Shown: piece by piece, positions 2,975 through 7,207 of the stretch
How positions within the stretch are numbered: the stretch's first letter is position 1
How the letters are laid out: each line of letters starts with the position of its first letter
DNA from: a virus
Lineage: Duplodnaviria; Heunggongvirae; Uroviricota; Caudoviricetes
IMG/VR virus record: IMGVR_UViG_2563366887_000002
Strand: one strand, 5' to 3'
Length of the DNA: 21,113 nt
Translations under genes and position numbers: made by a program
Notes under the pieces: generated by a model
The model's database searches: none
Told to the model about the DNA's origin: nothing
Seen by the model: the letters and a program-made list of their open reading frames with translations, nothing else

Positions 2975-3403
2975 TTATTCAATATCTATTCCTGTAATAT
3001 CTTTTATCTTTTTCCTTGCAAAGCCTTTTGCTAGTGATTTTGAAACACTTATTAGTGTACTAATTCCCTCATCCTTAAAGTTTGTTTTTATAGTTTGCCA
3101 GACCTCCTTTTGACGCAAGTCAGCAATAAAATCATGCCCTCTTGCTGTCAACCTCAGTGGTACTTCGAACCAACTATATCCAACACCTTCCCCTAACTCG
3201 TTGGACATTATATGACCGAACCCAGGTTTTCCATCAACCCTGACTATTAATTCGTAGTCGCATAATAATCGCATATGGAAAATAAAATTTTGGTCATATC
3301 TATTAAAGCCATTATCCTCTAGTTCACTAAGCATCGTGTCAGGGCCATGAGTTTTTTCGAATGCGATAAGTAGATCTTTTAGATATTGCTGGTCTAATTT
3401 CAT
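2975..3403 (-). CDS. Hypothetical 142-aa protein, AT-rich moron; possibly DUF2513-like, function unknown
   Basis: ORF with strong RBS (GGAGG 6 nt upstream); about 37% GC; not in lambda at this position; DUF2513 assignment is from pattern memory only. Confidence 0.6.
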   Translation of the reverse strand: MKLDQQYLKDLLIAFEKTHGPDTMLSELEDNGFNRYDQNFIFHMRLLCDYELIVRVDGKPGFGHIMSNELGEGVGYSWFEVPLRLTARGHDFIADLRQKEVWQTIKTNFKDEGISTLISVSKSLAKGFARKKIKDITGIDIE

Positions 3404-3413
3404 TGCCGCCTCC

Positions 3414-3425
3414 GTGACATGTCAC
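3414..3425. promoter_or_regulatory. Perfect 12-bp palindrome GTGACATGTCAC in the 5' leader of the 142-aa gene; candidate operator
   Basis: Read directly from sequence; lies between the stop of the upstream zinc-ribbon ORF and the RBS of the 142-aa gene. Confidence 0.35.
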
Positions 3426-3431
3426 AGAGAT

Positions 3432-3770
3432 TTATATCATTAATTTTGTTTCGTGCCAGCCTTTGGTCACCCAGCATTGTGAGTCACCATTACACGGGCA
3501 TGAATTAACAGGAACTCTCTCGCCGCACTTACCGCAACGTTTTCTGCTGATCGATTTTATACGCCAGCGCACACGTGCATCATCCTGGCGGCTCAGTAAC
3601 GCGATGTACTCACCAAACTCGTAAGGCGCATGCCTGAAGCGGCGCGTGGCTCAGTTACGATCCAGCATTTCAATTTCCTGAGCATCAAGTACAAGCTCCA
3701 GCTTACGCATACCGGATGATGCTTGCTTGGCTCTCTGATCGACTTTGCGCTCTGCTGATGATTTAGCCAT
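3432..3770 (-). pseudogene. Split ORF: 39-aa N-terminal part (3651-3770) then in-frame TGA, then 72 codons containing a Cys-rich zinc-ribbon-like motif (CGKCG...CPCNGDSQC); possibly a disrupted Ea8.5-like gene
   Basis: Hand translation of minus strand: MAKSSAERKVDQRAKQASSGMRKLELVLDAQEIEMLDRN-TGA-ATRRFRHAPYEFGEYIALLSRQDDARVRWRIKSISRKRCGKCGERVPVNSCPCNGDSQCWVTKGWHETKLMI; both parts in the same frame. Confidence 0.35.
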
Positions 3771-3963
3771 TCTGCTTTTCCTGCATTAGGAGAAAGACAA
3801 TCATGGCGGCGCGGATACTTCCGGTATCTTTTTACTCGATATTACCCTTCAATGGCACATACAAGAAGAGAGCCATCAACAGGAGTGAGTGAGGAATCGA
3901 CAACCAGCAACGCTTAATTATCTATAGTGTCGTATTTGCTTCATAAAATATGGCGAATAACAC

Positions 3964-3999
3964 AAAGCCCGCAGCAGCTCATTGTGCGGGCTTTTCTTA
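3964..3999. terminator. Bidirectional rho-independent terminator: AAAGCCCGCA-loop-TGCGGGCTTT with U-rich tracts on both strands
   Basis: 10-bp stem read from sequence; T-runs follow on both strands; about 70 nt downstream of the minus-strand 204-aa gene. Confidence 0.5.
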
Positions 4000-4063
4000 T
4001 ACATACTTCCTAGAGATAATTCTATGGAGGCATTAAATTAATACTGTCATTGGTAATATCATA

Positions 4064-4678
4064 TTATCTAAAAGTCTTTCCACTTTTAACGTCTAGGTAT
4101 ATTCTGTTCGACAACGTCATTCCTCCGCAATATGTGAAATAGATGTTTTTCCCCTTATTGCTTGATGCCATCCACCCTCCGATTTCCTTAAAGTCGCTTT
4201 CCGTGCAGACCCCTTCGTTTATTAACTTCCTAGCTGCCGAAGAAAACTCTTTTTTGTATATACGGTAGTCATCAGATCCTTTGATTAAAGTATCATCTCC
4301 GCTCGCATTTTCAGCAGGATCTGATGGCCTTTCACTGCTAAGATCACTAAGTTTAACCCATTCTGAAAACTTGCCATTGACGATTCCGTTTTTTCTTGTG
4401 CAGGATTTATTACCTTCTTTAATATATTCGCTTTCCCCTCCCACACATGAGGCTGAATATGGCTCAGTTATACGAACCCATTCACCTTTTTTTTCTAGAA
4501 AATCTACGCCTTCCCTGAAAAATAGTTTCCCAGCCACTCCACATTTACTTGAAGGGCAGGTATGTCTTTCCGTTCGATCAACAACAACCCAAAGTCTTGA
4601 TTCATTTTTTGCCATTGCCGATGGTATTTGAGATGAGACAATTAACGTAAGCCCTAAAATTAGTATTGATTTTTTCAT
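4064..4678 (-). CDS. Secreted/periplasmic cysteine-rich protein (204 aa) with cleavable signal peptide; function unknown
   Basis: N-terminus MKKSILILGLTLIVSSQIPSAMA with AXA cleavage motif and no lipobox Cys; six Cys in mature part; SH3b-like motifs (GEWVRI, SEWVKL); about 40% GC; RBS AAGGA; own terminator. Confidence 0.7.
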   Translation of the reverse strand: MKKSILILGLTLIVSSQIPSAMAKNESRLWVVVDRTERHTCPSSKCGVAGKLFFREGVDFLEKKGEWVRITEPYSASCVGGESEYIKEGNKSCTRKNGIVNGKFSEWVKLSDLSSERPSDPAENASGDDTLIKGSDDYRIYKKEFSSAARKLINEGVCTESDFKEIGGWMASSNKGKNIYFTYCGGMTLSNRIYLDVKSGKTFR

Positions 4679-4976
4679 TGTAATTTCCTTTTACTTTTTA
4701 CAAAGCGTTTAATCATGGCTGATTATCTTTAAGCGTAGTAACAGCCTTGTGCGAAACATGTTACCAAATCGCCATTTCAGTGTATCCGCAGTTAGGCTGC
4801 CACTTCAAGGATTCCTAATTACATGGTACGTAAGCGTAAAATCCCGTTGGTTGTCGGGTAATAACTCTGATCAAATCTCCCTTGTCTTTTGCTCTTACGT
4901 ATGCAGCTCTTGTGTATTCAACCCAGGCCTCCAGTTCAGCAATACGCTTACTTCCATCCGAGATAACACCTTCTAC

Positions 4977-5228
4977 TCACGCTGCTCGTTGAGTTTTGAT
5001 TTTTGCTGTCTCCAGCTCAACACGCAGTTTCCTCACCGTTAGCGCAATATCCTCGTTCTCCTGGTCGCGGCGTTTGATGTACTGCTGGTTTCTTTCCCGT
5101 TCATCCAGCAGTGTCAGCACAATCGATGGTGTTACCAGCTCATGGAAAAGGTCCGCGTCAAATCCCCAGTTGTCATGCATTGCCTGCTCTGCCGCTTCAC
5201 GCAGTGCCTGAGAGTGAATTACGCTCAC
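4977..5228 (-). CDS. Ea22/ead-like protein fragment (83 aa) ending at an in-frame TGA; the same frame continues 54 more codons to a TAG at 4815
   Basis: DADLFHELVTPSIVLTLLDERERNQQYIKRRDQENEDIALTVRKLRVELETAK and, after the TGA, VEGVISDGSKRIAELE, resemble the C-terminal region of lambda Ea22-family proteins as I recall them; 4-nt overlap with upstream gene. Confidence 0.55.
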   Translation of the reverse strand: MSVIHSQALREAAEQAMHDNWGFDADLFHELVTPSIVLTLLDERERNQQYIKRRDQENEDIALTVRKLRVELETAKIKTQRAA

Positions 5229-5446
5229 TTCGAACCTCTCTGTTTACTGATAAGTTCCAGATCCTCCTGGCAACTTGCACAAGTCCGACAACCCTGAACG
5301 GCCAGGCGTCTTCGTTCATCTATCGGATCGCCACACTCACAACAATGAGTGGCAGATATAGCCTGGTGGTTCAGGCGGCGCATTTTTATTGCTGTGTTGC
5401 GCTGTAATTCTTCAATTTCTGATGCTGAATCAATGATGTCTGCCAT
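5225..5446 (-). CDS. TraR/DksA-family C4 zinc-finger protein, lambda orf73-like
   Basis: 73-aa ORF with CxxC-x17-CxxC (CCECGDPIDERRRLAVQGCRTCASC); same size and architecture as F-plasmid TraR and lambda Orf73. Confidence 0.75.
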   Translation of the reverse strand: MADIIDSASEIEELQRNTAIKMRRLNHQAISATHCCECGDPIDERRRLAVQGCRTCASCQEDLELISKQRGSK

Positions 5447-5554
5447 CTTTCATTAATCCCTGAATTGTTGGTTAATACGCTTGAGGGTGAATGCGAATAA
5501 TAAAAAAGGAGCCTGTAGCTCCCTGATGATTTTGCTTTTCATGTTCACCGTTCC

Positions 5555-5596
5555 TTAAAAACGCCGTTTACGCTGCAGGATAATGTCCGGTGTCAT
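5555..5596 (-). pseudogene. exo: exo remnant: first 9 codons of lambda exonuclease (MTPDIILQR) then unrelated sequence and a stop
   Basis: ATGACACCGGACATTATCCTGCAGCGTA matches the lambda exo start overlapping the bet stop; homology ends near 5568. Confidence 0.7.
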
Positions 5597-6039
5597 GCTG
5601 CCACCTTCTGCTCAGTGGCTTTCTGTTTCAGGAATCCAAGAGCTTTCACTGCTTCGGCCTGTGTCAGTTCTGACGATGCGCGAATGTCGCGGCGAAATAT
5701 CTGGGAACAGAGCGGCAATAAGTCGTCATCCCATGTTTTGTCCAGGGCAATCAGCAGAGTGTTAATCTCCTGCATGGTTTCATCGTTAACCGGAGTAATG
5801 TCGCGTTCCGGCTGACGTTCTGCGGTGTATGCGGTATTTTCGACAATGCGCTCGGCTTCATCCTTGTCATAGATACCAGCAAATCCGAAGGCCAGACGGG
5901 CACACTGAATCATGGCTTTATGCCGTAACATCCGTTTGGGATGCGACTGCCACGGCCCCGTAATTTCTCTGCCTTCGCGGGTTTTGAATGGTTCGCGGCG
6001 GCATTCATCCATCCACTCGGTAACGCAGATCGGATGATT
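5593..6039 (-). pseudogene. bet: bet (Red-beta recombinase) C-terminal fragment, about 149 of 261 aa; 5' half deleted
   Basis: Translation NHPICVTEWMDECRREPFKTREGREITGPWQSHPKRMLRHKAMIQCARLAFGF...KATEQKVAA matches lambda Bet C-terminus; in-frame TAG at 6049-6051 and unrelated sequence upstream. Confidence 0.85.
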
Positions 6040-6198
6040 ACCGGTTCGCTACCAGGGAAGAACGGGAAGGAAAGGTGAGCACGAATCTGATTTTCAAGGA
6101 GTGTCGCCAGAGTGCCGCGATGAAGCGGGTGTTGGCATTTTATCGCGGCAATTTTCAATAGACTATGTACATAAAAATATCATTTTTTTAATACATGT

Positions 6199-6390
6199 CT
6201 AATTATTGGACGAAATTGGTTTTTGCTTTGGTTTAGTTAGCCTAGCAATCAAGCCAGAGGCAATAATGATGATCCAAGCAATTTGATGCAATGCTACTCC
6301 AATATAAGAACCTTTATAGATAATAAAGGCATAGATCGCTAGAAACGAAATAAATATCCATAACGAAAGTTGATAAATTTTGGCGCGCAT
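6199..6390 (-). CDS. Small hydrophobic membrane protein (63 aa from ATG; 68 aa if the TTG at 6405 is used), two predicted TM helices; function unknown
   Basis: MRAKIYQLSLWIFISFLAIYAFIIYKGSYIGVALHQIAWIIIIASGLIARLTKPKQKPISSNN; about 33% GC; weak RBS. Confidence 0.45.
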   Translation of the reverse strand: MRAKIYQLSLWIFISFLAIYAFIIYKGSYIGVALHQIAWIIIIASGLIARLTKPKQKPISSNN

Positions 6391-6611
6391 ATTTAATCCA
6401 ATCAATCAGAAAGACGAGTAATCATAGAGGTACTATCACCCGGGTAACTATTGCTATTATGAACGGATAGGATAGAGGCTTCAATAACATATGCATCAAG
6501 TATGATGGAATATGTAGGTGAAAATGACTTGTGTCAAATTTGTGGAAATGAGTACCATGTTTCTCTGAAATTGATGTCGTTAATGGCTAGTGATAGTGAA
6601 CTTTTTTACTT

Positions 6612-6617
6612 TATAAT
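6612..6617 (+). promoter_or_regulatory. Consensus -10 hexamer TATAAT about 30 nt upstream of the lipoprotein operon start
   Basis: Exact TATAAT read from sequence; no good -35 found. Confidence 0.25.
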
Positions 6618-6646
6618 TCCTTTGGTTATAACAATAAGGTAAATTT

Positions 6647-7207
6647 ATGAAGAAGATAATATTATTAGCCATGATTATTGGTTCTTTAACAGGTTGCGCT
6701 AGTGTGCCACCATTGAATTTTTCAACACCTAACGTGGGAGTTAGCTAGAAAAAAATAGATGCTGAAATTAAGTCATTAACGGTATCACTTGCTCGTCCAG
6801 ATGAGCAGAAAGGGGATATCACTGCTGGTATGGAGGCTATAACTCCAATTTGGCGTGAATCTTTGCAGGAAGCACTCGACCGAATGACTATTTTTCGTGA
6901 TAGTTCACCAAATACGGTTAGCTTAAATGTTAAAGTGTTGGCTCTTGACGTTCCTGCTTTTGGTGTTTCAATGACAACTAAAGCAATTGCAAGGTATGAA
7001 ATAATCAACCGTGCGAATGGTGATATTATATATACGCAGGATATTGAGTCTACCGGTACTGTTCCAGCCAGTTACGCATTCTACGGTATTGTTCGAGCAC
7101 GCGAATCTGTTAATCGCGCGGTGCAAAACAACATAACGCAGTTCTTGCAAGCATTAGAAAGTGTTGATCTTTCTCGTCCAATGTTTCCTGTTAGGGTAGC
7201 TAAATGA
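6647..7207 (+). pseudogene. Lipoprotein gene (lipobox LTGC) interrupted by an in-frame amber codon (TAG 6746-6748) after 33 codons; 153 further in-frame codons downstream
   Basis: MKKIILLAMIIGSLTGCASVPPLNFSTPNVGVS-TAG-KKIDAEIKSL...VRVAK; RBS AAGGT 7 nt upstream of ATG; ORF track reports only the 6830-7207 portion; ATGA overlap with next gene. Confidence 0.5.

Follow-up and report, generated by a model that had tools for sequence, protein, structure and literature searches.

Morons that encode envelope proteins are a familiar feature of lambdoid phages, with bor and lom of lambda, gp15 of HK97 and cor of phi80 and N15 as examples. Here we describe gene X, an open reading frame (ORF) at positions 4064-4678, minus strand, of a 21,113-nt stretch of Caudoviricetes DNA (IMG/VR record IMGVR_UViG_2563366887_000002; the whole stretch is referred to below as the window). 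Like the genes named above, gene X has an atypical composition, is found only in some members of the group, is flanked by a terminator of its own and specifies a product, exported or membrane-bound, that is presumed to benefit the lysogen. Unlike them, it lies in the early-left arm rather than in the late region, and its product is not known to be related to theirs in either sequence or fold. The family to which it belongs also departs from the lambdoid pattern in being chromosomal in many non-phage contexts.

Two further groups of proteins provide points of comparison. SH3b (SH3_3) domains are the cell-wall binders of endolysins, lysostaphin and NlpC/P60 peptidases; the SH3b domain of gene X differs from these in having no attached hydrolase, in carrying two extra cysteine pairs and an insertion of ~20 amino acid residues (aa), and in its predicted location in the periplasm of a double-membraned bacterium. 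The lysozyme inhibitors Ivy, PliC/MliC, PliI and PliG are periplasmic proteins or lipoproteins. Gene X resembles them in encoding what appears to be a small, stand-alone, Sec-exported, disulfide-containing non-enzyme, and both soluble and lipoprotein versions occur within its family; it shares neither sequence nor significant structural similarity with them, and an inhibitor activity is suggested by analogy. Finally, DUF7244 is a stand-alone, bare SH3 protein of T1-like coliphage lysis modules whose role is unassigned (PMC13164509). Gene X likewise specifies a coliphage-encoded SH3-type protein, which differs in having a signal peptide and a second domain, and the gene lies away from lysis genes in E. 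coli.

Gene X is carried by a discrete low-GC cassette

Chromosomal loci identical to the window are present in many strains of E. coli, such as FORC_081, NCTC9041 and the ATCC 8739 lineage, where the lambdoid prophage is integrated at the lambda attachment site beside ybhC. Both the ORF list and the RefSeq annotation of an identical locus give gene X as a 204-aa frame with an ATG start, and its product is identical to WP_000748284.1, annotated “hypothetical protein”. Its GC content is 39.2% (33% at third codon positions, GC3) against 49.6% for each flank (3432-3828 and 4929-6039), in good agreement with the ~40% and ~50% given by an initial annotation of this DNA.

Presence of the insert at this slot is patchy. 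When positions 3400-5300 were searched with megablast, the flanks (query positions 40-371/429 and 1528/1530-1901) were matched in >3500 E. coli genomes (3862 E. coli records) and the middle in only 131, which delimits a full low-GC mosaic insert at approximately 3829-4928 (39.3% GC). Of 5426 E. coli genomes, 133 contain the narrower 0.85-kb unit at 3964-4818. For the slot as a whole, 131-133 genomes with the insert stand against >3500 with the flanks. Among genomes with at least 80% coverage of the cassette, the 204-aa frame is intact in 129.

The same unit recurs outside this prophage. Alignment with a P1-like phage-plasmid of E. fergusonii shows that positions 3964-4818 are shared as a block, with homology extending from ~140 bp 5' of the ATG (near 4818) to just past the terminator hairpin; the discrete unit previously drawn at 3964-4815 is therefore essentially correct. 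The E. fergusonii ortholog is 88% identical, with dN of 0.06, dS of 0.71 and dN/dS of 0.085. Because of this low ratio and of the many homologues described below, we conclude that gene X is a real gene, the protein product of which is under strong purifying selection.

A Shine-Dalgarno sequence, AAGGA (4686-4690, minus strand), lies 7 nt 5' of the ATG and is invariant in the E. fergusonii cassette, so that the ribosome-binding site reported earlier stands. Downstream of gene X, an intrinsic-terminator-like hairpin at 3964-3999 is flanked by a U-rich tract on each side and can be read on both strands. Folding of 3964-3994 together with the A/T runs (RNAfold) gives -18.5 kcal/mol (z -3.1) in the sense direction and -17.5 kcal/mol (z -4.3) on the plus strand, far below the energies of shuffled controls, in support of the earlier description of a bidirectional terminator. 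A simple terminator scan called the hairpin on the plus strand only, because the sense-strand stem has a bulge. A hairpin followed by a T-run is found at the matching position in the diverged E. fergusonii cassette (L099). An Rfam “Thr_leader” match at 3957-4050 (21 bits against a gathering score of 55, E 0.39) was rejected, since it corresponds to the terminator hairpin.

The upstream part of the cassette (4679-4818, minus strand) is conserved in the alignment with E. fergusonii. Identity over the 150 bp upstream of gene X reaches 79%, as compared with ~54% at synonymous sites of the gene itself, which argues that this region is constrained. This suggests that the 5' leader may contain a regulatory element, either protein-binding or RNA; the leader (4679-4818) has no match in Rfam.

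A gene 98.5% identical to X occupies the same slot in phage Chlobot, a puddle-water isolate, where it lies downstream of exo and recT. The placement in an “exo-xis region” proposed by the initial annotation therefore applies to intact relatives; in the window, exo is absent, recT is truncated and gene X lies between an ea22-like remnant and a traR/dksA-like gene on one side and xis on the other. In unrelated prophages from IMG/VR, homologues are found on the strand opposite to late operons (between endolysin and tail genes, between head-decoration and major-head genes, and beside a tail terminator gene), which points to autonomous transcription at these sites. An Aeromonas prophage has its homologue between an antiterminator and the lysis region.

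Patchy presence at the slot, distinct composition and a terminator of its own are all features of a moron. The designation of the gene X unit as a moron, that is, a compact mobile cassette, is well supported because the unit recurs in a P1-like phage-plasmid and relatives lie on the opposite strand in late operons. The cassette would comprise a leader/promoter region of ~140 bp, the ribosome-binding site, the ORF and the terminator, and it appears to have inserted between the ea22-like and umuD-like genes in the early-left arm of a lambdoid prophage.

Gene X encodes a predicted exported protein with two domains

The N-terminus of the gene X product, MKKSILILGLTLIVSSQIPSAMA, has a basic n-region, a hydrophobic core (maximum Kyte-Doolittle value of 3.18 over 10 aa) and the residues A-M-A immediately before K24. 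Cleavage by signal peptidase I is predicted after AMA, which delimits a signal peptide of aa 1-23 (4610-4678, minus strand). There is no lipobox in the protein, the first cysteine of which is residue 41. The cleavable signal peptide, the lack of a lipobox and the six cysteines (residues 41, 46, 78, 93, 158 and 184) are as the initial annotation had described them. We strongly infer Sec export, removal of the signal peptide and formation of disulfides in the periplasm.

An AlphaFold2 model built from a 39-sequence alignment has a mean pLDDT of 90.8, with values below 55 for aa 1-20. The first domain (aa 28-110; 4349-4597, minus strand) is SH3b-like and has the fold of an SH3-like β-barrel. The Cys41/Cys46 pair is located in the first loop of the barrel, and an insertion of ~20 aa carries Cys78 and Cys93. 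The two motifs that were initially taken for two SH3b-like copies (GEWVRI and SEWVKL) are in fact two strands of this single barrel, with the cysteine-containing insertion between them.

The second, C-terminal domain (C-domain; aa 125-204, 4067-4306, minus strand) is an α/β domain consisting of two main helices followed by three strands. Its conserved motifs are SDD[YF] (SDDY in gene X), GGW, YFTYCGG and NR[IL]YL (NRIYL in gene X), together with the conserved cysteines Cys158 and Cys184. When modelled alone, it is predicted with a pLDDT of 91.5. Searches with 22 members of the family gave no Pfam match to the C-domain even at E<=10, and there was no genuine sequence match in the PDB. Profile matches to de novo designed TIM barrels in the PDB (E ~1e-6 to 1e-8) were discarded as an artefact, because in each case a single helix (SDDxRxxKxAxxKxAxxLI) matches an idealised repeat weakly, four times over, and the score is the sum of these matches. 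The domain matches no enzyme family and has no recognisable catalytic signature. Thus, the C-domain is described in none of the databases searched. It is an independent module, since it folds confidently alone and also occurs alone in other bacteria. Overall, we regard the architecture and the localisation of the gene X product as highly probable.

The family is widespread in double-membraned bacteria

A word-indexed search identified 82 homologues of gene X, and an exhaustive profile search retrieved 1500 representatives (50% identity, E<=1e-3), 177 of which have E-values below 1e-30. Matches in genomes were obtained for Pseudomonas, Aeromonas, Vibrio, Shewanella, Marinobacter, many Rhodobacteraceae and Rhizobiales, and Burkholderiales, as well as for Campylobacterota, Terriglobia, Vampirovibrionales, Gemmatimonadota and Bacteroidota. 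All of these hosts are double-membraned; a lone 1.2-kb “Streptomyces” contig with a family match is probably contamination.

An export signal is present at the N-terminus of all 39 aligned members, approximately one third of which have a lipobox. Other members are anchored by a zinc ribbon with a transmembrane segment, or have added exported ankyrin or coiled-coil regions or extra copies of SH3b. The Cys158-Cys184 pair is kept family-wide, and all six cysteines are kept within the gene X subfamily. Forms of ~100 aa that consist of the C-domain alone behind a signal peptide or lipobox are found in Agrobacterium, Rhizobium and Marinobacter, and the domain occurs in tandem in P0151.

In every source, members of the family are named “hypothetical protein”. 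The gene X product belongs to PHROG 8310 (“unknown function”) and has no match in NCBIfam or PADLOC; apart from a sub-threshold SH3_3 match discussed below, it thus fits no characterised family, as had been stated initially. Literature searches by accessions or by the PHROG identifier returned no mention of gene X, nor is it mentioned in the literature on the exo-xis region.

Gene X homologues have no conserved partner

Clustering of ORFs over 79 genome loci revealed no conserved partner gene, the biggest non-self cluster being present in 5-6 loci. Such a result speaks against an operonic machine or a toxin-immunity pair and is what would be expected of a protein that works alone. In Rhodobacteraceae, Rhizobiales, Vibrio and Shewanella, homologues are found in housekeeping settings, with pheT, glnD, recJ, secDF and the gene for 6-phosphogluconate dehydrogenase among the neighbours. 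Mobile contexts include IS-rich regions, IncF plasmids with prophage fragments, and prophages. A 5.3-kb ColE1-type plasmid of Citrobacter has X as one of only four annotated genes, and the other genes on it are uninformative. In Pseudomonas, a homologue directly follows a tyrosine integrase gene in a recurrent island of ~5 kb (L006, 6402-12411; L015-L019), which contains four or five genes without known function, two of them with weak KilA-N matches. In one Pseudomonas genome, the island adjoins two pyocin S/immunity pairs. Because the family also occurs among housekeeping genes, these contexts point to a general role in the periplasm, later adopted by mobile elements, rather than to a phage-specific one.

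The surrounding prophage is defective

On the integrase side of gene X, the RefSeq annotation of the identical locus places int at 1419-2489 and xis at 2467-2685, both on the minus strand like all genes of this arm listed here. Between xis and a DUF2513 gene (2975-3403) there is an ORF of 55 aa. A gene at 3432-3770 is intact (113 aa) in plasmid and phage copies; in the window it is a pseudogene that an internal stop splits into ORFs of 39 and 46 aa. On the other side, the upstream edge of the insert is marked by a 3'-truncated ead/Ea22-like gene at 4929-5180 (RefSeq annotation of the identical locus L001, 7130-7381, minus an offset of 2201), and the ORF at 4977-5228 matches Pfam Ead_Ea22 with an E-value of 9e-20. 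It is followed by a traR/dksA-like gene (5225-5446) and a 5'-truncated recT (5593-6039), which abuts a ren fragment on the plus strand. The recT-ren junction lies within 5593-6161. Because the truncated recT directly abuts the ren fragment, we conclude that the gam-kil-cIII-N-pL-cI-cro-cII-O-P block is deleted and that the prophage is defective.

Several other features of the window were recorded. The DUF2513 gene has a low GC content (36%) and lies ~660 bp downstream of gene X. In Marinobacter litoralis (L104, 6401-6763), a DUF2513 gene comes directly after a lipoprotein homologue of the C-domain-only type and before PIN- and NERD-type genes. The proximity to gene X could be a coincidence, or DUF2513 could be a second linked cargo gene; the co-occurrence is confined to the E. 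coli lambdoid group and one Marinobacter lineage, too thin a basis to build on. A second low-GC block (32-40%) occupies 6150-7650, between the ren fragment and the ybcN/nin genes. Its overlapping plus-strand ORFs (6830-7207 and 7204-7656) have no assigned function, the latter showing a weak glycine-zipper 2TM match, and the block may be another moron. Further along, downstream of a Q-like antiterminator gene, the prophage carries a full-length porin gene of the OmpC/NmpC type (9909-11051, minus strand; Porin_1, E 4e-153).

Proposed function and alternatives

We propose that gene X is a moron-borne gene for an exported two-domain protein that would dock on the cell wall and bind or block a partner, a function generic to double-membraned bacteria. 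In this model, the protein would act alone in the periplasm, with the SH3b barrel docking it on peptidoglycan, while the C-domain, held by one invariant disulfide, would bind and probably block or shield a periplasmic partner. The most plausible partner would be an enzyme that acts on the wall or an incoming device that breaches the envelope. The soluble and lipoprotein forms within the family would then have their parallel in the PliC/MliC pairs of lysozyme inhibitors. The gene would have been taken up repeatedly, for the benefit it gives the host, by phages, phage-plasmids, small plasmids and integrase islands. To this combined statement we assign a probability of roughly 0.45; the binder or inhibitor mechanism, considered separately, is tentative and to our mind rather doubtful.

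Several observations weigh against this proposal. The gene X product has no characterised homologue, and tethering to peptidoglycan would follow from the fold class of the modelled SH3b domain only. The Pfam SH3_3 (PF08239) score of the protein is 16.1 bits, below the cut-off of 27. The low score is due to the Cys78/Cys93 insertion of ~20 aa and the Cys41/Cys46 pair of this subfamily; relatives that lack the insertion pass the threshold with 34-88 bits. An autonomous promoter for gene X seems plausible from the sequence, although a standard scan found no sigma-70 promoter on its strand. The best candidate is weak: TTGAAG (4803-4808) and TACACT (4779-4784), separated by an 18-nt spacer, match 8 of 12 consensus positions, which is below the usual threshold. 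In several genomes (L106; E. coli ATCC 8739 lineage), an IS1 element is located ~95 bp upstream of the ATG (approximately window position 4773), just downstream of the candidate -10 element, and the ORF is intact; this insertion suggests that the gene may be dispensable. In addition, pL is absent from the prophage in the window, where expression of gene X is a prediction. The label “lysogen-expressed” given initially is consequently moot here, with pL, N, cI and the replication genes lost, and applies to intact relatives. Finally, there is a recurrent link to umuD-type genes, considered below, which the proposed model leaves unaccounted for.

Among the alternatives, the one that survives best, although improbable, is that put forward by the initial annotation, namely that gene X serves in superinfection exclusion or another anti-phage role. 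Its product would block DNA entry or wall piercing, for instance by keeping tail lysozymes away from peptidoglycan. T4 Sp and the receptor blockers Cor and Llp are the likenesses that come to mind. The moron sits at several genomic positions in temperate phages, opposite to late genes, its product is predicted to be periplasmic with a domain of the wall-binding type, and transcription that starts autonomously in a lysogen would be confined by the terminator that directly follows the gene. All this is compatible with exclusion; direct positive support was not forthcoming. The protein has no similarity to PADLOC defence models (0 hits) or to described exclusion families in Pfam, NCBIfam and PHROG, only 1 of 50,697 deposited phage genomes carries gene X, and the family is not restricted to phages, many of its members residing among housekeeping genes or in other non-phage chromosomal contexts.

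Next in order, and about as improbable, is an orphan immunity function. The C-domain would neutralise a periplasm-acting toxin of competitors, for instance a bacteriocin or a type VI effector with amidase or muramidase activity, and the gene would have been spread by mobile elements without the toxin. All-against-all ORF clustering over the 79 genome loci and the individually inspected contexts revealed no adjacent effector, and the searches placed the gene X product in no described immunity family.

The recurrent association with umuD-type genes raises another, still less probable alternative, in which gene X is an SOS-linked envelope factor, expressed together with these genes after DNA damage or induction and modulating wall turnover or lysis. 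In the window, a remnant of an S24-peptidase (UmuD/HumD-like) gene lies directly after the terminator (3803-3913, minus strand); it was recognised by DNA alignment and by tblastn with the S24 protein of the E. fergusonii phage-plasmid (76% identity over aa 46-82), and RefSeq labels positions 3845-3910 “DNA repair protein, incomplete”. Chlobot has a umuD-like remnant in the same position. The E. fergusonii phage-plasmid itself (L099, 2300-2910) has a perfect LexA box, TACTGTATATAAACACAGTA, and a humD-like gene directly upstream of the gene X ortholog. Two metagenomic loci (including L013, 4019-6411) show a tight umuD-X-umuC arrangement, with gaps of 44 bp and 9 bp in one such operon, and umuDC debris lies upstream of the homologue in a Burkholderiales metagenome-assembled genome (L065, 3895-5122). 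Moreover, gene X belongs to the early-left operon of lambdoid phages, which is transcribed on induction, and a stand-alone SH3 protein is tied to Drexlerviridae lysis cassettes (PMC13164509). On the other hand, the window was searched for a LexA box and has none, only 4 lineages among >100 loci show the link to umuD, and mobile elements commonly carry umuDC genes in any case. In E. coli, gene X is not beside lysis genes, and its product has no match to DUF7244. The link may thus reflect either shared residence in the accessory regions of mobile elements or SOS co-regulation.

That gene X is a functionless, decaying passenger of a cryptic prophage, as the heavy degradation of the element, the neighbouring pseudogenes and the IS1 upstream of it in some strains might suggest, is essentially refuted by the dN/dS of 0.085, the frame kept intact in 129 genomes, the deep conservation and the confident fold.

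Returning to the proposed wall-docked, partner-binding protein, a broader version of it can be envisaged, which we consider quite unlikely: the C-domain would represent a widespread new class of periplasmic protector modules, either free or tethered to peptidoglycan by SH3b. Phages, plasmids and islands would spread it as a defence against weapons that breach the wall, be they phage tail lysozymes, type VI muramidases or amidases, or host lysozyme, and in some elements it would be SOS-switched.

Temperate phages alter their hosts mainly through morons, most of which are still unannotated. In its genetic organisation gene X is a textbook example, and its product joins a fold known for wall binding to a domain that is uncharacterised. 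To specialists it is a well-defined experimental target rather than a surprise. Its capture by phages, phage-plasmids, a small plasmid and integrase islands suggests that it confers a portable, stand-alone benefit. Solving the function of gene X would annotate thousands of genes now called “hypothetical”, and it could reveal a new way in which the cell wall is protected or modified.

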